Positions 4,232 to 62,422 of a stretch of DNA of 64,000 bases are shown here, piece by piece. This DNA comes from Candidatus Kaiserbacteria bacterium (lineage in GTDB: Bacteria > Patescibacteriota > Minisyncoccia > Phycocordibacterales > Phycocordibacteraceae): NCBI GenBank assembly GCA_027451665.1, contig DAIDIW010000001.1, forward strand, positions 95,359 through 159,358, in the 5' to 3' direction. The notes beneath the pieces were generated by a model. It ran no database searches. It was not told the DNA's origin and was given only the letters and a program-made list of their open reading frames with translations. The translations under genes were made by a program, and so were the position numbers. Each line of letters starts with the position of its first letter. Within the stretch, counting starts at the first letter, position 1.

Positions 4232-5498
4232 CCAATTCTTGCGTAAGCTCAAACTCGCGTTCGGCGATACCGAAATCCGCAATCGCATACTCTTCCTCGC
4301 GGGCGCACTCGCGCTATTCCGTTTCCTTGCGGCAATTCCTATCCCGGGTGTGAACCGCGCTGCGCTCGCGCAATTCTTCGCGAGCAATCAGTTTCTCGGC
4401 CTTTTGAATATCTTCTCGGGCGGCGGTCTCTCCCGCCTCTCGATCGTGATGCTCGGCGTCGGTCCCTACATCACGTCGTCAATTATCATGCAGCTTGCGA
4501 CGATCATCTTCCCGCAGGTAAAGAACGCCTATTTCGAGGAGGGTGAAGCCGGTCGCGCGAGATTCATCCAGTGGAGCCGTCTCCTCACCATTCCCATCGC
4601 GGTTCTCCAGTCGATTGGTTTCCTGCTTCTCTTGCAGGGGCAAGGCGTCATCACGAATCAGGGACCGGTAGGTCTTATCACGAACATAGCGCTCGTGACC
4701 GGCGGCTCGATGCTTCTCATGTGGATCGGCGAGCTCGTGACCGAGTTCGGGATCGGGAACGGCGTCTCGCTCATCATTTTCGCGGGGATTATGGCGCGAG
4801 TTCCGTCGGGTATCTCGCAGACGCTTTTCGCCGCGACGGCGCAACAGATCCCCGCCTATTTCGCGTTTATCGCGCTCGCGCTCATCATGACCTACGCGGT
4901 CGTAGTGGTGTCCGACGCCGAGCGCTCCATCCCGATCGCGTACGCGCGCGCCGTCCGCGGCGCGGCGATGCAGCAGGGCGCCGCTACTTATCTGCCTATC
5001 CGCTTGCTTCAAGCCGGCGTGATCCCGATCATCTTCGCGCTCTCGCTCCTTCTCTTGCCGCAGATGGCGCTCTCGATGCTCTCGGGGCTCCATTTCGCAT
5101 TTGCGCAGGGCGCCTCGCTCTGGTACAGCGCCTTCCTCGCGGATCCATGGAAGTACGGCTCCGTCTACTTCCTCTTCGTCGTTCTCTTCACATACTTCTA
5201 TACGGCGGTAACCTTTGAACCATCTCGCGTCGCGGAGAATCTCCAGAAGTCAGGTGCATTCGTGCCGGGGGTGCGTCCAGGCCGCGAGACGGAATCGTAT
5301 ATCGGGGCGGTCGTAAATCGTGTGACGCTCCCGGGTGCGGTCTTCCTCGGTCTCATCGCGGTCGCACCATCGATCATCCAGGGCCTTACCGGCATCACCA
5401 CGCTCGTCTTGGGCGGTACTGCACTCCTTATTGCTGTACAGGTGGCGCTTGATCTCGCTCAAAAGATTGATGCGCAGGTGTCCTTGCGAGAATACTAG
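4224..5498 (+). CDS. secY: Preprotein translocase subunit SecY
   Basis: 424 aa with 10 predicted TM segments. MLSQFLRKLKLAFGDTEIRNRILFLAGALALFRFLAAIPIPGVN. Conserved position after rplO. Confidence 0.9.
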   Translation: MLSQFLRKLKLAFGDTEIRNRILFLAGALALFRFLAAIPIPGVNRAALAQFFASNQFLGLLNIFSGGGLSRLSIVMLGVGPYITSSIIMQLATIIFPQVKNAYFEEGEAGRARFIQWSRLLTIPIAVLQSIGFLLLLQGQGVITNQGPVGLITNIALVTGGSMLLMWIGELVTEFGIGNGVSLIIFAGIMARVPSGISQTLFAATAQQIPAYFAFIALALIMTYAVVVVSDAERSIPIAYARAVRGAAMQQGAATYLPIRLLQAGVIPIIFALSLLLLPQMALSMLSGLHFAFAQGASLWYSAFLADPWKYGSVYFLFVVLFTYFYTAVTFEPSRVAENLQKSGAFVPGVRPGRETESYIGAVVNRVTLPGAVFLGLIAVAPSIIQGLTGITTLVLGGTALLIAVQVALDLAQKIDAQVSLREY

Positions 5499-5549: not shown

Positions 5550-6113
5550 TCAGGGATGCTTCAACCACGCATGGTAGCCCTCGATAATGCGCCGTATGAC
5601 CATGTCGAGCTTATGCTGCCCAGTATCAAGCTGGAGGTCGAACATTGAGTGGTCATCGACATCAATGCCGTAGAGATCGTGATAGCGCTTCTTTTCGCTC
5701 TCATAGCGCTCGCGGGTGGCCGAAAGCGCTTCCGCTACCGAGTCAGCTTTCTGACTCACGCGCCCTTCTTTCTTGATTCCGTAATAGATGCGCTCAGCGG
5801 CCAGCTGCGGATCTACCGCGAGGTAGACCTTGAACGATTCGGGCATCCAGTGATAGGCAAGCCTCGAGTCGACGACGAGCTCCGAGCGGTCATAGAGCTG
5901 CTTCAGGCGATCATCCACCGCATGGTCGATCTCGTTCTCGAGTTCGGCTTCCCGGTTGATCTCCTCTATTGAAATACCACGTTCCTTTGCGATCGCCCGG
6001 AAGAGATCGCCCGAGGAGAAATGAGCGTACCCGAGCTCTTCCGCGACACGCCGCGCGGTGGTCGACTTACCGCTCCCGATGGCACCGGCGATCGTGATGA
6101 TGGAGTGCTTCAC
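5550..6113 (-). CDS. cmk: Cytidylate (d)CMP kinase, short ~187-aa type
   Basis: P-loop ITIAGAIGSGKSTTARRVAEELGYAHFSSGDLFR. The length and the YLAVDPQLAAERI segment fit the short Cmk family. It is encoded antisense inside the spc operon. Confidence 0.65.
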   Translation of the reverse strand: MKHSIITIAGAIGSGKSTTARRVAEELGYAHFSSGDLFRAIAKERGISIEEINREAELENEIDHAVDDRLKQLYDRSELVVDSRLAYHWMPESFKVYLAVDPQLAAERIYYGIKKEGRVSQKADSVAEALSATRERYESEKKRYHDLYGIDVDDHSMFDLQLDTGQHKLDMVIRRIIEGYHAWLKHP

Positions 6114-54634: not shown

Positions 54635-54705
54635 AGCGGGGTAGAGGAGAGGTACCTCGGGAGGCTCATAACCTCCAGACGCGGGTTCGATTCCCGCCCC
54701 CGCAA
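54635..54705 (+). tRNA. tRNA-Met (anticodon CAT), possibly initiator-like
   Basis: Anticodon loop CTCATAA. T-arm GCGGG-TTCGATT-CCCGC. D-arm GAGG-AGAGGTA-CCTC with A11:U24. Acceptor AGCGGGG/CCCCGCA has an unpaired 1:72. The 4-nt variable loop and 5' end are uncertain by 1 nt. Confidence 0.7.
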
Positions 54706-54725
54706 CACGGTTGTGACGCCAGGAA
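54704..54725 (+). repeat. Left direct repeat (att-like) AACACGGTTGTGACGCCAGGAA
   Basis: 22-nt exact match to 58452-58473. Confidence 0.7.
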
Positions 54726-54775
54726 CTGCTTCCGGCCCCCATTAAGGCCAGTACAGTACCGCTCGGCATCACGTA

Positions 54776-54807
54776 CGCAAAAGCCGCCCGAAAGGGCGGC
54801 TTTTGCG
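54776..54807. terminator. Hairpin CGCAAAAGCCGCCC-GAAA-GGGCGGCTTTTGCG
   Basis: Perfect 14-bp stem with a GAAA tetraloop just inside the island left end. Confidence 0.5.
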
Positions 54808-54874
54808 TATTGGACAGATGTTGCGGGTAGTCGTATTCTGTGGTCATGCACGGGATACGCGCGTCTACAATTTT

Positions 54875-56059
54875 ATGCAGATCACGGTCAAACGAAAAAA
54901 TTCGGCCATCCTCGATGACACTGTCGTACGGGCGGTTCTCGGTATGTACCCCGAAGAGAAACTTGTCGAGCGACCCCTTTTTGAAGAAGGGCTAAGCGGT
55001 ACGCCCATTGATTTTCAGGATTTCCGCGATGAGTGCGATAAGATCCTCATCCCCTGGCAGATGTTCCTCCTAAGCAAGGTGAACCTTGCCACCGAACTCG
55101 GGCATATTGAATCACAGCGACAGAAGGTTTCCCAAAAGCTTTTTGCGAAGAGGCGAGGTAACGGTAACGTTACCTCGAAACGTATTATTGACCGTCTTAT
55201 TCGCTGTCAGAATTACGTAACTACGAATGGTACTTTCCCGAAGCATGCGTTCTCTGGCTCCTTGAATGGGATGCAGACCATAGATGCGGCTGCTCATATT
55301 GTCGCCTACTTCGGTATCGATATGAGAGTCTTTCGCAGCAAGAAAAAGGCAGAAGCTCTTTCATATCTCATCAAACGGCTAGAAGAGAACAACATCAATG
55401 TCTGCCAAGGAGTACTCACTAACAAGATTCTTCCACAGGTGGATGGAGTGCGAGAAGTATACAAAGGCACCAGCGGTTTTGCTATTAAGGACGAGAAGGT
55501 GCCGTTCGTCTTTATTCCCAGTGAAATTAATCCCAACGAGAAGGATGGGAGACAAATCTACACCTTGGTATATCTCATGACGGTAGTCGGTCTCGAACAG
55601 TACGAGTTCATCCTCAATAAGGATTTCAAGGTCAGTCTCCTTGCGTCTCGCGGTCTGCAAAAGCGGATTTACGATATTACTTCTGAATTCTTGCTCCCGA
55701 GAGCAAAGACGGAGCAGTATCGCGGAATAACGATTACGGAAACTATCCGTGACGACCTCTCGACTGCCTACAAGATAACTCCGTCGGCAGTAACGGTTAT
55801 TTTCAGAAAACGTGGCCACATCCCTGACCAGGCCGTATATGAGGCGCTCTTGCCGGATCCCCAGCCTGTTGTCTCTGATAATGGACCGCGCCGACAACCG
55901 GGCATTGAAGCGTCGGTAAGGAAGTTTAACGGCAAGCATGTCTGCGATCTTGCGAACCCAGCGATTAAGAGCCGTGCTCTATTTCCAGTCCAGGCGCAAT
56001 ATTTGCTCTTTGGTTCGGTGAACAAGAAGGGATTTAAGGACTACCAAAAAACGCTATGA
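54875..56059 (+). CDS. Hypothetical protein, island cargo gene 1 (~394 aa)
   Basis: GC is ~47%. No Walker, nuclease or other motif is recognisable by eye. A TACAAT -10-like hexamer sits at 54866 just upstream. The start is set at MQITVKR after the hairpin. Confidence 0.45.
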   Translation: MQITVKRKNSAILDDTVVRAVLGMYPEEKLVERPLFEEGLSGTPIDFQDFRDECDKILIPWQMFLLSKVNLATELGHIESQRQKVSQKLFAKRRGNGNVTSKRIIDRLIRCQNYVTTNGTFPKHAFSGSLNGMQTIDAAAHIVAYFGIDMRVFRSKKKAEALSYLIKRLEENNINVCQGVLTNKILPQVDGVREVYKGTSGFAIKDEKVPFVFIPSEINPNEKDGRQIYTLVYLMTVVGLEQYEFILNKDFKVSLLASRGLQKRIYDITSEFLLPRAKTEQYRGITITETIRDDLSTAYKITPSAVTVIFRKRGHIPDQAVYEALLPDPQPVVSDNGPRRQPGIEASVRKFNGKHVCDLANPAIKSRALFPVQAQYLLFGSVNKKGFKDYQKTL

Positions 56060-56493
56060 AAATCATCGACAATAATGGTCTTAATCACGTTCTTTCAAAT
56101 GGGATTCATCTTACGGAACCCTACTTCATCACGCCTGATGTCAAAGAAGAATATGAAGTAGAGCACGACAAGCTTCCGCATAACGTCAAACCTATTTTCG
56201 GAGAAGAATGGTTCGATAGTGCTGCGTATCTCCTGAATTACCAAACGGTGCTAAATCGGCGGGATGGTCGCTCTTTCTACAATATGACTGGATTTGGCGA
56301 TGTCTCCATCGTTGCGGCGCTAATGACCCTCAAGGCGTCGTGTGCAGGTATGCTTCCAGTCATGATTGAGGATCACGTTGTTATTACCGGGGATGTTGGT
56401 CTCACACGCCAGCTCATGGATGAGTTTAATGATACAGCCAATGAGTTCGACCAAAAGATGCAGGTTATTCGGCCTCAGGACTATGGTTGGTAA
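56056..56493 (+). CDS. Hypothetical protein, island cargo gene 2 (145 aa). Weak PIN-like features.
   Basis: The start overlaps the upstream stop (ATGA). The N-terminal MKIIDNNGL with Asp at position 5 and the later acidic residues (EDHVVITGD, DEFND) are reminiscent of PIN nucleases but not diagnostic. Confidence 0.45.
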   Translation: MKIIDNNGLNHVLSNGIHLTEPYFITPDVKEEYEVEHDKLPHNVKPIFGEEWFDSAAYLLNYQTVLNRRDGRSFYNMTGFGDVSIVAALMTLKASCAGMLPVMIEDHVVITGDVGLTRQLMDEFNDTANEFDQKMQVIRPQDYGW

Positions 56494-56707
56494 ACGTACG
56501 GGAGTATACTGATGACAGTTGTGACCTTCGACCTGAGGGGACAGACGGTTCGATTCCAGAAACCATGATGTATGTGCTCGTGATCTTGGCGAACGTAGTT
56601 CTGCTTATTAGTGCGTGCGTAACGCCTATTTCTGCTATGAAAAACGCCACAGTCGCTTGTAGCTATGTTCAAGGGAATGGCATGGACCCTCACGTCAAAG
56701 CTCGTAA

Positions 56708-57871
56708 CTAAAGACCAGTTGCTACTGTACCGGCGTCTTCGTTTTCACAATCGAGTGAAATTTTCCTATCTTTCAATACTAGTCTCCCGCGCAATTGCTC
56801 AAGTAGCTCGCGCTTCTCTTCGACTGTACCAGCTTCGAGTAAGTACTTCGCGTAGCGTTTGATGTCTATGTCTTTCGGCTTCTCCCATTCTTTCACTCCA
56901 AGCACCTGCGCCTGCATGTGGTTGAAGCGGGCAATTTCCTTATCGATAATCTGTCGCGCGCCGAGCCGGTCTATCTCGATCTCGTCGATAATATTACCGA
57001 GTTGTTCGATAAGCGCATCCTCGCGGATATAGGGATTCTTGCAGCGTCTGTCCCGTGTGCGGTTGCAGACGTAATAGCGGTAGAAGACGGATTTGCCGGT
57101 GGTTCGCAGGATTTTCTCCTTTTCAAGGCAGGTGATGCCCGATCCGCATTCTCCACACGTCATCATCTTTGTGAACGCGAATCCTTGGTATTTCTTTCGA
57201 GGACTCGTCTCCTCAGTGATTTTCTTTCGCACCGCCTCGAATAGCTCTCTCGTGATGAGCGCTTCGTGCTTACCGACGTACCAGTTGCCCGACCCACGTG
57301 GGTATTCGAAGACGCCGCAGTAGAAGGGATTCTTAAGAAGTTCATACAGCGTTCCTATACTCATATCCTTGCCACTCCGCGTCTTGAATTTCACTTCTTC
57401 CTTGAGCCAGTGATACACGCGCACGCCGCTCCACTTGTCTCGACCTACTTTCTCGAAGATCATCTTCACGATAGGGGAGCGGATTGGGTCGAGCAGGTAT
57501 TCGCATTTATGATCTGATCGATTGTCGTTCAGATACCCGACCGGCGCCCAGCCGGGAAGGGTAATTAGATCTTTTGCGGGTTCAGGAGACCATGGGCATA
57601 CAAACATAAGCTGAGGTTCCCGGATGGTTATTGCTTCATTGCCACGCTGGGTACACAAGATTGCCGTAGGACGATAGGCGCAAAACGCACATGAACGCGT
57701 GCATGCCGGGCACGAAAGGGATAGCGCGAGAACGAAAGATGTGGTACAGTGGGACAATGAGAGGGCCTGACTTAGACCGCGAGCGCAGCGAGCGGAAGCA
57801 TTCCCGTGGCGAGTTTCTCGCGCTCTATAACGAGGGCCTGCCGAGCGGATTCCCGCGCGCGACCGCCGCAC
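56708..57871 (-). CDS. Large serine recombinase remnant: recombinase domain, zinc ribbon and coiled-coil only. The N-terminal catalytic resolvase domain is absent.
   Basis: APVGYLNDNR...IVKMIFEKV...YHWLKEEVKFKTRSGKDMSIGTLYELLKNPFYCGVFEY is the recombinase domain. CGECGSGITC...YYVCN is the Zn ribbon. No S-x-x-Q/R catalytic motif appears in any frame upstream. GC rises at ~57650, suggesting truncation. Confidence 0.6.
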   Translation of the reverse strand: MRRSRAGIRSAGPRYRARETRHGNASARCARGLSQALSLSHCTTSFVLALSLSCPACTRSCAFCAYRPTAILCTQRGNEAITIREPQLMFVCPWSPEPAKDLITLPGWAPVGYLNDNRSDHKCEYLLDPIRSPIVKMIFEKVGRDKWSGVRVYHWLKEEVKFKTRSGKDMSIGTLYELLKNPFYCGVFEYPRGSGNWYVGKHEALITRELFEAVRKKITEETSPRKKYQGFAFTKMMTCGECGSGITCLEKEKILRTTGKSVFYRYYVCNRTRDRRCKNPYIREDALIEQLGNIIDEIEIDRLGARQIIDKEIARFNHMQAQVLGVKEWEKPKDIDIKRYAKYLLEAGTVEEKRELLEQLRGRLVLKDRKISLDCENEDAGTVATGL

Positions 57872-57996
57872 TCCTCGCCGAATATCGTCGTACGCACATC
57901 GACCAATTCAAGGGCGAGCACTGGTCGCTCGACCTGCATCGCAAGAAGGTGATGGACTGGCTCCCGGTCCGCCTGGACGCGCTCAAGAGCCGATAG
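57739..57996 (+). CDS. Possible small protein (~85 aa)
   Basis: ORF MWYSGTMRGPDLDRERSERKHSRGEFLALYNEGLPSGF... lies at the GC transition. Weak call. Confidence 0.2.
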   Translation: MWYSGTMRGPDLDRERSERKHSRGEFLALYNEGLPSGFPRATAALLAEYRRTHIDQFKGEHWSLDLHRKKVMDWLPVRLDALKSR

Positions 57997-58116
57997 GACC
58001 GCAGGACGATCCGTGCTAGTATACGGGCATCAACCAGCGCTGAACCAGTCGAGTCCGGTTCGAGCCTCTTCTCCAGCCTCTGCATTGATACCTAGACAAA
58101 ATATATCCAATCGCAC

Positions 58117-58323
58117 ATGCAAGAAGGAACAATTACCCGTCTCGTTACTGAAAAAGGCTTCGGCTTTATCAAGGTGGAGGGACAGGAGAAGGACCTTTTC
58201 TTCCATTCCAATGAGCTCGTCGGCGTTTCATTCGACTCGCTCAAGGAGGGAGACAAGGTAAGCTTCGAGATCGCGGACAGCCCGAAGGGCCCGAACGCGG
58301 TCAAGGTCACGAAGGTGGCGTAA
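58117..58323 (+). CDS. cspA: Cold-shock protein (CspA family)
   Basis: GTITRLVTEKGFGFIKVEGQEKDLFFHSNEL carries the RNP1 (KGFGFI) and RNP2 (DLFFH) motifs. 68 aa. Confidence 0.9.
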   Translation: MQEGTITRLVTEKGFGFIKVEGQEKDLFFHSNELVGVSFDSLKEGDKVSFEIADSPKGPNAVKVTKVA

Positions 58324-58334
58324 ACAGTCACGAT

Positions 58335-58373
58335 GAAAACGACGCCCCCTTATGGGGGGTCGTTTTCATTTTA
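58335..58373 (+). terminator. Rho-independent terminator after cspA
   Basis: GAAAACGACGCCCCC-TTAT-GGGGGGTCGTTTTC followed by a T-rich tract. Confidence 0.65.
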
Positions 58374-58451
58374 TAGTATCTATAAGGGGGAAGACGATTG
58401 CCAAAGGAGCCCCAAACACCTCACCTGACGGGTACGGTATTCAGACGGGCA

Positions 58452-58473
58452 AACACGGTTGTGACGCCAGGAA
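58452..58473 (+). repeat. Right direct repeat (att-like) AACACGGTTGTGACGCCAGGAA
   Basis: 22-nt exact match to 54704-54725. Confidence 0.7.
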
Positions 58474-58644
58474 TCAGTACCGACAGGCCTAAAAACGGCT
58501 CAAAATTGGACCCCGAAATGACCCTAAGATGCGTCGCATTTCAGGGAGAAGTCTGGGTTCCATTCATCATTACTCCCGTGTTCGCCTTTTTACCCCAGGC
58601 GGTCTATAGTGCCGTGAGAGTCGGCACCACAGAGGAGCTGCCAC

Positions 58645-59199
58645 ATGCCAACGAGCAGAAATATCGCCCAGGCGGAGTTTTCCCATGTCGGCGGTAATGC
58701 GAATGCGTCGCTCGAGAGCGTCATAGCGGAATGCCAAGAACGGATCGCGGACGGCGTCGAAATGGCTTTGAACGGTCGGAGCGCCAGGAGCGGAATAAAG
58801 ACCACGGTCAGGTTCCTGGACCGATCCGGTGGACTCACGAAGCTTGCAAAACGGTCCGAAGCGCTGAAGAGGAAACGGGCGGCGTTGCACTATCGCTTCC
58901 CGAAACTTACCGGCATACGGCGTTCATGTGCGAATATCCGGAGCAGGCATCTCGAGGGGAAGGCCCGGAGACTTCGAGCGGAGGTACATTCCGTCTCGAT
59001 CCGTGAGCTGCTATCCGCCCTCATGATCGGACAGACGGTAGCCGTCGAACAGCCTGATCGTACGTTCCGCTTAGTTCGCCGGGATGAGACGTATGAGCTC
59101 ATGGAAGCGGTAGCGCGCTCGCAGACCGCCTGGCTTTTTGTCTTCGCTCCAAATGATCTTTTCGCCGACGAAAATGTACTAATCGCGTCGGCGATGTAA
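58645..59199 (+). CDS. Hypothetical protein (184 aa)
   Basis: ORF with no recognised motif. A hairpin plus T-tract follows at ~59213-59250. Confidence 0.35.
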   Translation: MPTSRNIAQAEFSHVGGNANASLESVIAECQERIADGVEMALNGRSARSGIKTTVRFLDRSGGLTKLAKRSEALKRKRAALHYRFPKLTGIRRSCANIRSRHLEGKARRLRAEVHSVSIRELLSALMIGQTVAVEQPDRTFRLVRRDETYELMEAVARSQTAWLFVFAPNDLFADENVLIASAM

Positions 59200-59290
59200 C
59201 AGTGCGATGCTCGTGCATCAACTGCCCTCCCTGTAACAGGGGAGGGTTTTCATCTGGGGCAAACCCGTTGATGGTGTAATGCGTTCAGTA

Positions 59291-59320
59291 TTGACTTTAT
59301 TGTGCAATGTGTGTGATAAT
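59291..59320 (+). promoter_or_regulatory. Sigma-70-like promoter TTGACT-N18-GATAAT with extended TGTG
   Basis: It lies in the AT-rich 200-bp intergenic region upstream of the ORF at 59401. -35 is at 59291-59296 and -10 at 59315-59320. Confidence 0.35.
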
Positions 59321-59400
59321 CAAAACGAACGTACTTTCACGTTGCACTGATATCCATTACTCCCGTCCGTATCGGGATTCTGCAATCATGGAGGGTCTAT

Positions 59401-59982
59401 ATGTTCTGTGGGTCGACAATCCAATCGTTACTGCATGGGGATACTACGCTTTCTGTCGTTCGTACGGTCTTCCTCGAGGAAGTAAAAGGCAAGCCTACCC
59501 GTGAATGTTGTCGGGGCGGAGGAGACTGGTACTTTCGGGATGAGAATCTCGATACCTGGCTCGATGCCGAACAGCCTGATGCTGCCGCGTGTGCAATAGC
59601 GGTATGCGGAAAAAGCGTCAACTGGACGTTCGAGGACATGGTTCGCAGTCATCCGGGCGCTCCAAAGAAGGCGAATGCCATCGAACTGGGCCGCTGGCTG
59701 ATTCAGAGCGGGCACGCGCTCACGCTCCCGCAGGTAGAAATTCTCTGCGAACGTACCGGACGCGGAGAAGATACCGGCCTGCGGACGATTGGCGCCCACG
59801 GAGTCTTCTGCGTCCTTGAAACGTCTCACACGGACGCGCCGGCCCCGGTACTCCGCATCGGAAGGCTGGATGCTCCCAACCGGCCTCGGTGGGGTATCGG
59901 TGTCGGTCGGTTGAGTCACAAGTCTCCGATGCCTGCGCGTTCACGTTTTCTCTTCCGGGGTCCGGACACCGCAAGAGCATGA
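59401..59982 (+). CDS. Hypothetical Cys-containing protein (193 aa)
   Basis: ORF. CCRGGGDWYF and CAIAVCGKS motifs are of unknown significance. Confidence 0.35.
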   Translation: MFCGSTIQSLLHGDTTLSVVRTVFLEEVKGKPTRECCRGGGDWYFRDENLDTWLDAEQPDAAACAIAVCGKSVNWTFEDMVRSHPGAPKKANAIELGRWLIQSGHALTLPQVEILCERTGRGEDTGLRTIGAHGVFCVLETSHTDAPAPVLRIGRLDAPNRPRWGIGVGRLSHKSPMPARSRFLFRGPDTARA

Positions 59983-60145
59983 TCTTTGCGGGTGGTTCCA
60001 TACCTGGTACACCCCTCTCTCGTACCGCGAGGAGGGGTGTTTCTTTATGCCTTCCGAGGGCACTTTCTCGAGGGTGGTCGCGGGGCTTGAATCACACAAT
60101 GCATTGTAGTAATGTCGAGAACGGAACGCGTCGAAAGGGGACGAA

Positions 60146-60757
60146 ATGCCCGTACACAACACAAGGAATGCGGCTGATCAGGAATTTGAAAGGGGCTTGG
60201 CGAAGGTGATGCTCCCGCTTCGCAAATTCACCCATCATCTTGCGGGAGCCGAGGGAGAAGACCTGCTTCAGGAGACCCTCACCCGCGCCTGGGAAAACCG
60301 GCATCAATTCACTCCCGGGACTAGTCTTGCGGCGTGGATCTTCACGATTGCGCGCCATCTACATTACTCCGCGCACAAGCGTAGATCGAGGCATATGCAG
60401 TTAGATCCTGAGTATGCCGAACGCACCATCCAGTCTGCCGATGGCCGTGCACAAGTAGAATCGAGGTCTGAGCTGAGTCACGTCGCGACCTGCCTTACCA
60501 CCCTCACCGAGCCGCAGGTCGCGGCACTCCTCTGGATCGCGTGCGAGGGTCTGCACTATGCAGACATTGCCGATCGCCAGCAGTGCGACATAGGAACGGT
60601 AAAGTCTCGCGTTTCGCGTGGCCGCCGGGAGTTGAAGCGTATAGCGGAGAGTGGAATGCCCGTTCCGGATATACATCCCGGACGGCTGGCGCGGATTGTC
60701 GAGTATTTGAAAGGAGTGAGCGAGGCCGAGATACTGACCTCGGCAACCGCCTTCTGA
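60146..60757 (+). CDS. ECF-type sigma-70 family factor (second copy)
   Basis: Region 2 LLQETLTRAWENRHQFTPGTSLAAWIFTIARHLHYSAHKRR and region 4 ALLWIACEGLHYADIADRQQCDIGTVKSRVSRGRRELK. Confidence 0.75.
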   Translation: MPVHNTRNAADQEFERGLAKVMLPLRKFTHHLAGAEGEDLLQETLTRAWENRHQFTPGTSLAAWIFTIARHLHYSAHKRRSRHMQLDPEYAERTIQSADGRAQVESRSELSHVATCLTTLTEPQVAALLWIACEGLHYADIADRQQCDIGTVKSRVSRGRRELKRIAESGMPVPDIHPGRLARIVEYLKGVSEAEILTSATAF

Positions 60758-60851
60758 GGTAGGGATGCGGTAAAGGAGAGCTGCACAGCAGCTCTCCTTT
60801 TTGTACCGTTTTCCGATACCGGAGTAAAAGCTTATACTACGCGGATTCGTC

Positions 60852-61610
60852 ATGCGTACCCTCGTCTCATTTGTGGTGAGCCTTGCCGTAGGCGCATCCT
60901 CATTTCTTGGATTCGCACACATGCATCCGCATGCGAGCGCGGTCGCGGCGCCTGCCGGGGCCGCGCTGGTTAGAAGCGCTTCGCCTATCGTCGTTCATCC
61001 GATCTATCTGTCGTTCGATATGGATATGAACGGATTTATGTACCGGAAGTCGAGACGCACAGGGAGGATCTGGTACGATCCGGCGCTGTTCGCCTATCTT
61101 GAGCAGCATCATATTCCGGCGACCTTCTTCGTCTCGGGGCTCTTCGCCTCCACCTATCCGGATCTGTTGCGGAGCCTCGCCTCGACGAGCCAGTTCGCGT
61201 TCGAAAATCATAGCTATGATGAATCGTCCTTCACGCCGCATTGCTATTGGCTGCGGACGCTCACGACGAATACGCAGAAGACCCAGCAGATTCAGGAAAC
61301 GGAGCAGCTTATCAAGCGCTATACCGGCCAGACCGCGACCTATTTCCGCTTCCCGGGGGACTGTACGAATGCTGAGAATGATGCCTTTGTCCGCAAACTC
61401 GGGTATGTGGTAAATGACGGGACCGATATCGCCGGAGACCCATTCAACAGGAATATGCGCGCCATCGTGCATGCCGTACTCTCGGACGCGACGACAAGCG
61501 CCACCATTCTCATGCACATCGGCGGGCCGAACGCTCCTGAGAGCCTTGTCGCACTTAAGCAGATTATGCCAGCCCTTTCCGCGGAAGGGTATCGGTTCGA
61601 GCGTCTGTAG
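60852..61610 (+). CDS. Polysaccharide deacetylase (CE4/NodB homology) family protein, secreted
   Basis: Signal peptide, then NodB-like motifs IYLSFDMD (degenerate TFDDG), HSYDE and RFPGD. Confidence 0.55.
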   Translation: MRTLVSFVVSLAVGASSFLGFAHMHPHASAVAAPAGAALVRSASPIVVHPIYLSFDMDMNGFMYRKSRRTGRIWYDPALFAYLEQHHIPATFFVSGLFASTYPDLLRSLASTSQFAFENHSYDESSFTPHCYWLRTLTTNTQKTQQIQETEQLIKRYTGQTATYFRFPGDCTNAENDAFVRKLGYVVNDGTDIAGDPFNRNMRAIVHAVLSDATTSATILMHIGGPNAPESLVALKQIMPALSAEGYRFERL

Positions 61611-61768
61611 GATCGTTCTGTCGCATCTTTGGGTGACCTCGTGCGTAATAAGGAACGGCATCTCGGCAATCCACAGGGTGGCTTTTGAAAAGGGAGGTCA
61701 GGCTCCATACTAGTCTCGCTCTCTTGGCCGGGAGCCGTTCGCATTAATAAAGTTATTTATCACTAAAC

Positions 61769-62422
61769 ATGTCAAGGAAAGTAATCGCTGCGCTCGGAAT
61801 CATCGGTTTTCTTGCGTCAGCGGGTGTAGCGTTCGCTCAGACCACGACGAGCAATCCGATGCCGATGGTTCTCCACGTCGGAGTGAACGGCAATGTGCTT
61901 CTGCGCGGGACGGTCAGTTCGGTGTCTTCCGGTTCGCTCACGGTGAAAAGCTGGGGCGGGGATTGGACGGTGAACGTTCCTTCTTCAGCCGAAGTGCTCC
62001 CGAGCGGCACTGCGCTCACGAGTTTCCAGCAGGGCGATTTCGTAGGAGTAGTCGGCTCGATAAATTCGAGTGCAGACTTTACGGTTGATGCTACGATCGT
62101 GCGCGACTGGACGGCACGCGCGGCGCTCAATCAGCAGATCCATACGAATGTGCAGCAGGCCCGCACGATTATGTCGAATCGTCCCCGCGTCACGCAGGGT
62201 ACGCTCTCGAATCTTGATGCGACGGCAGAAACCTTCACGCTCACGACCGCTGCAGGTACCGCGTATTCGGTCACGCTGAATTCCGGCGCTGAAACGATCG
62301 GAAGAAACTGGGCTACGATAGCGCTCACGCAGGCAAACACCGGTGATACGGTGCGCGTCTATGGCACCGTATCGAGCAGCACGATCGCTGCCTCGGTGTT
62401 CCGTGATGTTTCGGTGAAGTAG
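61769..62422 (+). CDS. Secreted DUF5666-like repeat protein
   Basis: Signal peptide MSRKVIAALGIIGFLASAGVAFA. Two repeats of the pattern GTVSSVSSGSLTVKSWGGDWTVNV / GDTVRVYGTVSSSTIAASVF. Confidence 0.5.
   Translation: MSRKVIAALGIIGFLASAGVAFAQTTTSNPMPMVLHVGVNGNVLLRGTVSSVSSGSLTVKSWGGDWTVNVPSSAEVLPSGTALTSFQQGDFVGVVGSINSSADFTVDATIVRDWTARAALNQQIHTNVQQARTIMSNRPRVTQGTLSNLDATAETFTLTTAAGTAYSVTLNSGAETIGRNWATIALTQANTGDTVRVYGTVSSSTIAASVFRDVSVK

Follow-up and report, generated by a model that had tools for sequence, protein, structure and literature searches.

A probable remnant of a serine recombinase element behind a tRNA(CAU) gene of a Candidatus Kaiserbacteria bacterium

The window, i.e. the whole stretch of 64,000 nucleotides that was analysed, stems from contig DAIDIW010000001.1 of a Candidatus Kaiserbacteria bacterium. 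Directly after a tRNA gene with the anticodon CAU it contains an island of about 3.8 kb, which is very probably the remnant of a site-specific integrative element of a large serine recombinase (LSR) family of Parcubacteria/Paceibacteria-like bacteria, which belong to the candidate phyla radiation (CPR). This interpretation is carried by the following observations: The island is enclosed by a direct repeat, here termed the core, and its junctions are of the attachment-site (att) type; its LSR gene is truncated at a sharp breakpoint; LSR genes are associated with the same core in related loci; a complete element bounded by two cores exists; and the cargo genes of the island are mobile. An integrated element with a decayed recombinase had been proposed from the sequence alone (the original prediction). 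The att-type junctions, the full-length relatives of the recombinase, the absence of its N-terminus and the presence of the cargo at other loci support this proposal.

According to the model that we favour, an intact element would encode an LSR of ~445 amino acids (aa) and insert into a conserved core of 22-31 bp, on which the LSR presumably acts and within which the crossover would take place. As the core begins at the last bases of tRNA(CAU), the tRNA would stay intact. Integration would generate on the left the order tRNA, core and element-borne trailer with a terminator hairpin, and on the right the order element end module, core and original host trailer. In the window, a subsequent deletion would have removed the catalytic domain of the LSR plus ~9 kb to its right, a part that comprises the helicase, the ParB-methylase and defence-type genes in intact relatives. 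The left trailer and the cargo pair would have stayed in place, as would the two thirds of the LSR that bind DNA, and the truncated element would now abut a host-like segment of 0.9 kb, which consists of a 79-aa open reading frame (ORF79), a cold-shock gene (csp), a decayed end module and a core. By itself, the island is presumably immobile; as both cores of the window are intact, it could still be acted on by an LSR provided in trans. The features are compiled in Table 1.

Table 1. Features of the island and its borders in the window
Feature	Positions	Strand	Basis and remarks
tRNA, CAU anticodon (Met, possibly initiator)	54635..54706	+	ARAGORN; Rfam tRNA, 60.2 bits; intact, no CCA encoded; host anchor
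Left 22-bp core (attL core)	54704..54725	+	Exact-repeat search
Element-type (B) trailer	54726..54812	+	Motif GTACAGTACCG; 88-94% identity to post-core trailers of L001, L128, L171, L175
Cargo gene 1, 394 aa, ImmA/IrrE/CapP-like fold	54875..56059	+	AlphaFold, Foldseek
Cargo gene 2, 145 aa, PIN-like nuclease	56056..56493	+	Conserved acidic residues, predicted fold
LSR remnant	56708..57559	-	Recombinase domain, Zn ribbon, C-terminal helical region; corresponds to residues 175-443 of full-length relatives
Deletion/fusion junction and non-homologous spacer	57560..57756		Homology to LSR loci ends here
Small conserved protein, 79 aa (ORF79)	57757..57996	+	71 representative clusters of ~75-90 aa, aligned from residue 1; GC at third codon positions 0.80
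Cold-shock protein gene with conserved leader and promoter region	58011..58323 (csp 58117-58323)	+	Cold-shock domain (CSD), 4.3e-20
Intrinsic-terminator-like hairpin and T-run after csp	58333..58369	+	
Decayed right-end (c6) module	58428..58451	+	GGGTACGGTATTCAGACGGGCA versus consensus GGGTACAGTACCGACACGGGC; homologous to c6-core junctions of L159 (86%) and L184 (80%)
Right 22-bp core (attR core)	58452..58473	+	Exact-repeat search
Native-type (C) trailer remnant TCAGTACCGACAGGCCTAAAAAC	58474..58496	+	Usual terminator hairpin lost; 44 of 45 nt as in L168

Repeat, tRNA and junctions

ARAGORN and Rfam place the 3' end of the tRNA gene at 54705/6. In our own reading of its letters, the tRNA has an A1-A72 mismatch and the pair A11:U24, which we take to be features of bacterial initiators; judged by its sequence, it may be a tRNA-fMet, not an elongator tRNA-Met. 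At the last bases of the gene begins an exact direct repeat of 22 nt (AACACGGTTGTGACGCCAGGAA), whose copies enclose 3.75 kb; in its 24-nt form (GCAACACGGTTGTGACGCCAGGAA) it occupies 54702-54725 and returns at 58450-58473 with two mismatches. There are only two copies in the window, both of which flank the island, and no match was found among 100 dinucleotide shuffles. The predicted repeat at the borders of the island is thus real. It had also been described as the 3' end of tRNA-Met plus 20 nt. Its location at the tRNA is correct, but the repeat takes in no more than the final 2-3 nt of the gene; the remainder is 3' trailer. Comparison with Islander-type criteria gave a divided picture: A displaced tRNA fragment acting as the repeat is missing, as the right copy shares only 2-3 nt with the tRNA, whereas an integrase gene and a deviating base composition (see below) are present, the former as an LSR relic that is non-functional as encoded.

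The left junction consists of tRNA, core and B trailer and matches the attL of intact elements. Within the B trailer, positions 54774-54809 form a perfect hairpin with a 16-bp stem (-31.5 kcal/mol), which probably is an element-borne replacement for the terminator of the tRNA. (A match of this trailer hairpin to RNAI in Rfam was below threshold and taken as chance; within the region, Rfam identified the tRNA only.) The right junction is composed of a decayed c6 module, a core and a C trailer, of which the remnant in the window can form a weak hairpin only (-11 kcal/mol). From the start of the core, this junction is identical at 44 of 45 nt to locus L168, where the tRNA directly precedes that sequence; loci L127 and L012 have the same layout. 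The arrangement that had been suggested as a check for an empty site, i.e. a tRNA directly followed by the sequence that lies behind the right repeat, was therefore found in relatives. In summary, the two junctions have the forms expected of attL (left) and attR (right); these forms and the agreement of the right flank with the unoccupied site of L168, together with the full-length LSRs of relatives and the complete element described below, indicate that the island is the deletion remnant of an element of ~13 kb.

Some further features were noticed near the core. A near-perfect palindrome, (C)GGTAC(A/T)GTACC(G), is located at 54751-54761 of the window. In core-bearing loci, copies of this palindrome and of the half-site CAGTACCG are present to the left and right of the core, namely in trailers and in the c6 end module; the copy in the right end module of the window is destroyed (GGGTACGGTATTC). 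The palindrome is a candidate protein-binding site. A different type of junction at the same tRNA was seen in L002: there, an insert of 1.1 kb with a HIT-like gene and a partial ORF lies between repeats of ~29 nt (4851-4879 and 5933-5961), which include the T-arm of the tRNA (GGTTCGATTCCGGCCCCCGCAACACGTAA). Upstream of the tRNA, L002 (4735-4775) and L012 (12525-12565) share the motif ggcYattccatRgcgggatggYaaatgcgaagc, which is absent from the window, and L012 contains a partial duplicate of the 5' end of the tRNA (12512 versus 12580). The tRNA(CAU) gene of L001 (13393-13688) harbours a group I intron in the anticodon loop (Rfam RF00028, 58.6 bits). In many core-bearing loci the T-arm is preceded by ...GTGGTAAGCATAACCTCC or ...AGGTATAAAAGAACCTCC, which marks an intron-interrupted tRNA(CAU); because of the group I intron, ARAGORN misses these genes. 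The tRNA of the window has no intron. Group I introns in tRNAs of Patescibacteria have been described (PMC13011429).

The recombinase, its relatives and the family-wide core

In the LSR remnant, Pfam detected the domains Recombinase (PF07508, 2.4e-15) and Zn_ribbon_recom (PF13408, 1e-08) and nothing else; in addition, the remnant matches positions 244-431 of the 651 positions of the integrase profile phrog_95 (3.4e-28). A tblastn search with a full-length relative aligned residues 175-443 with positions 57559-56753 (269 aa, 75% identity) without gaps or stops, and the C-terminal 90 residues of the remnant are conserved with relatives. Residues 1-174, i.e. the catalytic domain, gave no match in any frame of the 64-kb window. 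This all-frame search had been recommended as a check, and it agrees with the proposed retention of the Recombinase and Zn-ribbon domains and loss of the catalytic N-terminus; close relatives are full length and have Resolvase, Recombinase and Zn-ribbon domains. The break is sharp: DNA homology to LSR loci ends at 57556-57559 (at least eight loci) and protein homology at 57559. An ATG at 57607 is available as an upstream start (56708-57607, minus strand), and the 269 homologous codons are uninterrupted; to judge from this reading frame, a protein consisting of the DNA-binding domains only could still be made. A role as a site-binding regulator or as an exclusion factor might explain why such a truncated LSR was kept. 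An extension of the ORF to a GTG at 57871 was rejected as a novel N-terminus: this part lacks homologues, has a codon-position GC atypical of coding sequence and runs antisense to the conserved 79-aa protein.

The core was followed through metagenomes by a scan with a degenerate core pattern alone, which retrieved 96 loci. Together with the window and loci derived via the GatA protein, 119 instances of the core were collected on ~100 contigs. Sufficient flanking sequence was available for 107 instances: 41 follow a genuine 3' end of tRNA-Met, 51 follow pseudo-T-arm modules and 15 follow the c6 module (GGGTACAGTACCGACACGGGC). By this comparison, the repeat of the window is the core of an attachment site that the whole family shares in the trailer of tRNA-Met. 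Occurrence of the repeat at many unrelated loci had been named as an outcome that would contradict the original prediction. What was found on these short contigs is a core that stands directly after tRNA-Met or, in the rest of the cases, after end modules of the element type. The strict core pattern had no match in IMG/VR. A strong hairpin is present in 90 of 94 distinct post-core trailers, and the hairpins have 79 different sequences; behind the core, each unit is thus equipped with a terminator-like structure. To judge from half-cores and trailer variants, GCAACACGGTTGTGA may be the invariant part, which does not map the cut.

LSR relatives with 67-89% identity (tblastn) are present in 13 of the loci that had been retrieved by means of the core. 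Eight of these proteins are full length (443-462 aa), a ninth (L140) is incomplete because its contig ends, and the catalytic motif YARKSTEQD occurs in all nine. For the LSR of L122, Resolvase (PF00239), Recombinase and Zn_ribbon were all matched, in this domain order. Every LSR gene is antisense to core and tRNA, and 9 of 11 loci have a B-type trailer located 0.3-5.2 kb before it. Independent truncations of the LSR were seen in L150, L135, L126 and L082. Between loci, the LSRs are 75-94% identical and thus more similar than GatA (63-80%) and a flanking 190-aa protein (48-67%); moreover, their GC is 0.48-0.53 in hosts whose GC ranges from 0.52 to 0.64. A level of identity above that of host genes and a GC independent of the host fit horizontal spread. 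The family is large, with at least 8000 database proteins at E <= 1e-20 to the full-length LSR, and those members whose source is named are annotated as Paceibacterota, Pacebacteria, Minisyncoccia or Kaiserbacteria. With integrases of cultivated phages the LSR shares only ~25-28% identity, the closest solved chains being SPbeta SprA/YokA and the TP901-1 integrase. Distant relatives (47-60%) were noticed in the IMG/VR loci L187, L196, L206, L208, L209, L210, L212, L214 and L216, where the LSR genes are convergent to genes of tRNA-Ser, -Asp, -Glu, -Gln, -Asn or -Trp that lie 116-4300 nt past the LSR stop. Flanks of tRNA genes may thus be the target of the entire clade; in five IMG/VR loci with distant LSR relatives, a second copy of the tRNA flank was not found within the DNA at hand.

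A complete element is contained in the ENA contig k141_125062, where two cores are 13.65 kb apart. It comprises, in this order, a B trailer, a 252-aa ORF, the full LSR, a 1602-aa AAA_11/AAA_12 helicase, DUF2779, TerB_N, a ParB-methylase and a c6 module. Directly to the right of this element follows a second block, which consists of a partial B trailer, a 394-aa gene, a 145-aa gene and the C-terminus of an LSR. The latter (residues 377-441, 47% identity) is heavily decayed, independently of and further than the remnant in the window. At the nucleotide level, the block is 72% identical to that of the window, which implies that the island derives from an element of that lineage, whose left end has remained in the window. 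An ancestral block shared among relatives had been listed as a refuting observation; the block proved not to be common to relatives, and elsewhere the cargo pair occupies other loci.

Relatives have tandem arrays of LSR-less cassettes at this site. In L001, which was found via GatA, the same tRNA precedes four core copies that are separated by single-gene units. In relatives, 41 core-bounded intervals were delimited (0.16-9.1 kb, median 2.0 kb). Clustering of the 387 ORFs of at least 110 aa located to the right of the first core of each locus gave 258 clusters; Fic, NYN and P-type ATPase families recur, some of which may be host genes bordering the arrays. The units are mosaics in that they share single genes, not whole cassettes. 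Intact elements carry Shedu SduA_C, a reverse transcriptase-trypsin-like fusion and methylases, and inspection of L122 by eye revealed apparent type I restriction-modification genes. Elements and small gene cassettes of this kind are thus present at one conserved site in many related uncultured bacteria.

Cargo, right-hand segment and composition

The predicted two-gene cassette exists: The two cargo genes overlap by 4 bp. The start of gene 1 at 54875 was chosen because its homologues are 394 aa long; at least 222 homologues of ~394-400 aa are known. The AlphaFold model of the 394-aa protein (predicted local distance difference test, pLDDT, 88.6) was matched by Foldseek to CapP (7t5t, probability 1.00) and to IrrE/PprI. 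The motif H[ED]xxH is missing in 49 of 50 members of the family, which have no conserved histidine at that position. The protein has no match in Pfam, PADLOC, PHROGs or plasmids, and NCBIfam returned only noise for the cargo. In the 145-aa protein, D5, E32, D82 and D113 are invariant among 40 homologues. Its model (pLDDT 90.9) has PIN domains (Rrp44, VapC) as best folds in the PDB, with probabilities of up to 0.98 and weak E-values (0.02 or weaker); Pfam gave no PIN or DUF4411 match, and some homologues carry the JGI label 'FCF1'. Conservation of the pair extends from CPR bacteria to Bradyrhizobium elkanii, and the pair is mobile: in B. elkanii it lies beside restriction-modification, SIR2 and IS110 genes, in another CPR genome it adjoins tRNA-Ser, and the pair of the closest relative stands in a phage-like context without a core.

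By analogy, the pair probably serves in defence or as a toxin-antitoxin module. For combinations of PIN-like toxins (DUF4411, COG2405 and others) with DUF955/ImmA-IrrE proteins, a role as multi-component toxin-antitoxin systems has been suggested (PMC5499597). Like these, the cargo combines a large protein of ImmA/IrrE fold with a subsequent small PIN-like nuclease having four conserved acidic residues, and it occurs in mobile and defence contexts. In contrast to the described partners, which keep HExxH, nearly all members of the cargo family lack this motif; moreover, the cargo of the window has no Pfam match to DUF4411 or DUF955, and no helix-turn-helix component was identified with it.

The original prediction of a cold-shock gene with its own terminator holds true (CSD match, hairpin and T-run, Table 1). 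Together with its leader, csp has 77-82% nucleotide identity to L084 and L144, where csp is located downstream of tRNA-Met arrays. ORF79 has no match in Pfam or NCBIfam; its family also occurs as 21 tandem repeats within one protein of 1364 aa. Most simply, the segment made of ORF79, csp, c6 remnant and core is an older resident unit of the same tandem array that the deletion fused to the truncated element; the odds between this and an origin as the element's own cargo are about even.

GC is 0.491 at 54726-57559 and 0.554 at 57560-58451, compared to 0.589 in upstream host DNA and ~0.59-0.60 in the window overall. A lower GC between the repeats had been predicted; this applies to the left 2.8 kb, whereas the right 0.9 kb deviates less, and the dip is consequently confined to the left three quarters of the island. 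GC at third codon positions is a mosaic as well: it is 0.49-0.62 for cargo and LSR, 0.80 for ORF79 and 0.71 for csp. The best relatives of the GatA protein encoded in the window are from metagenome-assembled genomes (MAGs) of Parcubacteria, Paceibacterota and Patescibacteria (68-72% identity). PADLOC had no match for any ORF of the island, and PHROGs none for cargo, ORF79 and flanking ORFs. A 74-aa ORF at 56487-56711 was rejected as a gene, as nothing speaks in its favour; Pfam, PADLOC and PHROGs gave no support. To the right of the island, GC at 58500-62000 is 0.51-0.59 and still under host level. This region contains two ORFs (58645-59199 and 59401-59982) without homologues in Pfam, NCBIfam or the loci, followed by a gene for a sigma factor of the extracytoplasmic function type (60146-60757), and may be older island debris.

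Alternatives, significance and relation to known systems

Several points weigh against the interpretation as an element remnant. No relative is near enough to provide a truly orthologous empty site, the best identity of flanking proteins being ~60%. Since the core pattern was the criterion by which the loci were chosen, they say nothing about how well the core is conserved. A dyad-symmetry scan for attB-like and attP-like consensus sequences showed no clear site centre of the LSR type. The attB and attP sites of LSRs usually share few bases, and a core of 22-31 bp with similar flanks is unusual. An LSR is absent from 39 of the 41 core-bounded units, and the link between LSR and core is therefore one of co-occurrence. 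Finally, the ORF79-csp segment could have either of the two origins given above.

The abundance of units without an LSR would be explained if the island were made of two independent small units, one comprising the cargo pair and the LSR relic and the other ORF79 and csp, which were moved in trans by the LSR of a driver element in the manner of integron cassettes or of units of the staphylococcal cassette chromosome (SCC) that lack ccr. The diversity of the ORFs in the arrays, the varying array positions of NYN nuclease, P-type ATPase, Fic and csp, the intactness of both cores in the window and the mosaic composition of the island would fit as well. We nevertheless consider this scenario unlikely: single-gene mosaics are as compatible with decay and homologous exchange as with active capture, B trailer, cargo pair and LSR have stayed together as one block in two genomes, and neither free cassette circles nor events of trans-mobilisation were observed. 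A tyrosine integrase is used by most tRNA-linked islands (PMC4383910). Long direct repeats are typical of such islands, and the insert in L002 has a repeat that reaches into the tRNA. The 22-bp repeat could then be the identity segment of a classical tRNA island in which the LSR is a passenger. This is very improbable, given that a heuristic motif scan of 919 ORFs from core-bearing loci found no tyrosine-recombinase signature, that, apart from the LSR cluster, no integrase was among the ten largest array-protein clusters examined, that position and orientation of the LSR relative to the core are fixed, and that the tRNA body lies outside the repeat. Similarly slight is the probability that an ancestral variable region experienced a local duplication of the trailer/terminator module of the tRNA, the repeats being kept by homologous recombination. 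Hairpin trailer units do occur in tandem in relatives, and the composition of ORF79 and csp is host-like; this scenario does not account for the foreign composition of the left 2.8 kb, the recombinase relic, the cargo at unrelated loci in other genomes and the correspondence of both junctions to the attL and attR forms of intact elements. A remnant of an LSR element agrees with these findings.

A more far-reaching proposal can be made for the site as a whole. In Paceibacteria-like CPR bacteria, the trailer of tRNA(CAU) might be a dedicated gene-capture platform served by a serine recombinase: core and modular flanks would correspond to attI/attC, and units of one to three genes that lack a recombinase, each with a terminator of its own, would be integrated, excised and reshuffled in trans by the LSR of the 13-kb driver. 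We regard this as rather doubtful; if true, the site would be the counterpart of an integron that relies on another class of recombinase, and this in bacteria that are believed to have few mobile elements.

The literature yielded no description of this site or LSR family; element family and hotspot appear to be undescribed, and the island, taken alone, is a decayed element of an ordinary kind. Mobile elements of CPR bacteria/Patescibacteria are poorly charted. The island led to a widespread clade of LSRs that may target tRNA flanks, to a sharply defined attachment core and to a hypervariable hotspot, whose cargo is of the defence or toxin type (Shedu SduA_C, reverse transcriptase-trypsin-like fusion, methylases including the ParB-methylase, Fic, NYN, PIN). 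If the LSR acts on the core, this would make available a defined serine integrase with its att pair from CPR bacteria, would explain the exchange of accessory genes among these small genomes, and would turn core and trailer types into markers for delimiting islands in fragmented MAGs.

Known systems share parts of this architecture. Phage large serine integrases (SPbeta SprA/YokA, TP901-1, A118, Bxb1, phiC31) have the same order of Resolvase, Recombinase and Zn ribbon as the full-length relatives; unlike here, where the target is a tRNA flank and identity to them is at most ~28%, the shared core of phage serine integrases typically has 2-8 bp and is thus much shorter. Features of integrons were not seen: the heuristic scan of the loci found no tyrosine-recombinase motif, and the unit boundaries are copies of core and trailer, not imperfect palindromes resembling attC. 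SCCmec and the Enterococcus cassette chromosome (ECC), which are mobilised by the LSRs CcrAB, are likewise LSR cassettes at one conserved chromosomal site with direct-repeat att flanks, and they also show multiple attR sites, composite arrays and remnants without recombinase; their repeats have ~50 bp (PMC6222049). They differ in that their target is the 3' end of rlmH instead of the 3' flank of tRNA(CAU), and in that they possess a CcrA/CcrB pair instead of a single LSR of ~445 aa in CPR hosts. The LSR remnant scored only 40 and 28 bits with the NCBIfam models of CcrB and CcrC (cut-off 900), and the LSR is therefore not a Ccr orthologue. Tycheposons of Prochlorococcus (10.1101/2020.12.28.424599) also reside in streamlined hosts and integrate at tRNA genes, one of them tRNA-Met(CAU); with successive integrations, older elements are displaced inward, partial tRNA copies separate the units, fragmented integrases and degenerate elements pile up, and LSRs are in the minority (27 of 937). 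The relatives studied here have tandem units, pseudo-T-arm separators and an LSR; in their partly surveyed cargo no primase or replication module was identified, only a helicase in one intact relative. In contrast to tycheposons, the LSR is the sole recombinase seen, the core is located in the trailer and not in the tRNA body, and the hosts belong to a different phylum. By this comparison, the growth of islands at the tRNA(CAU) gene resembles both the successive integration and decay of tycheposons and the composite arrays of SCC/ECC.

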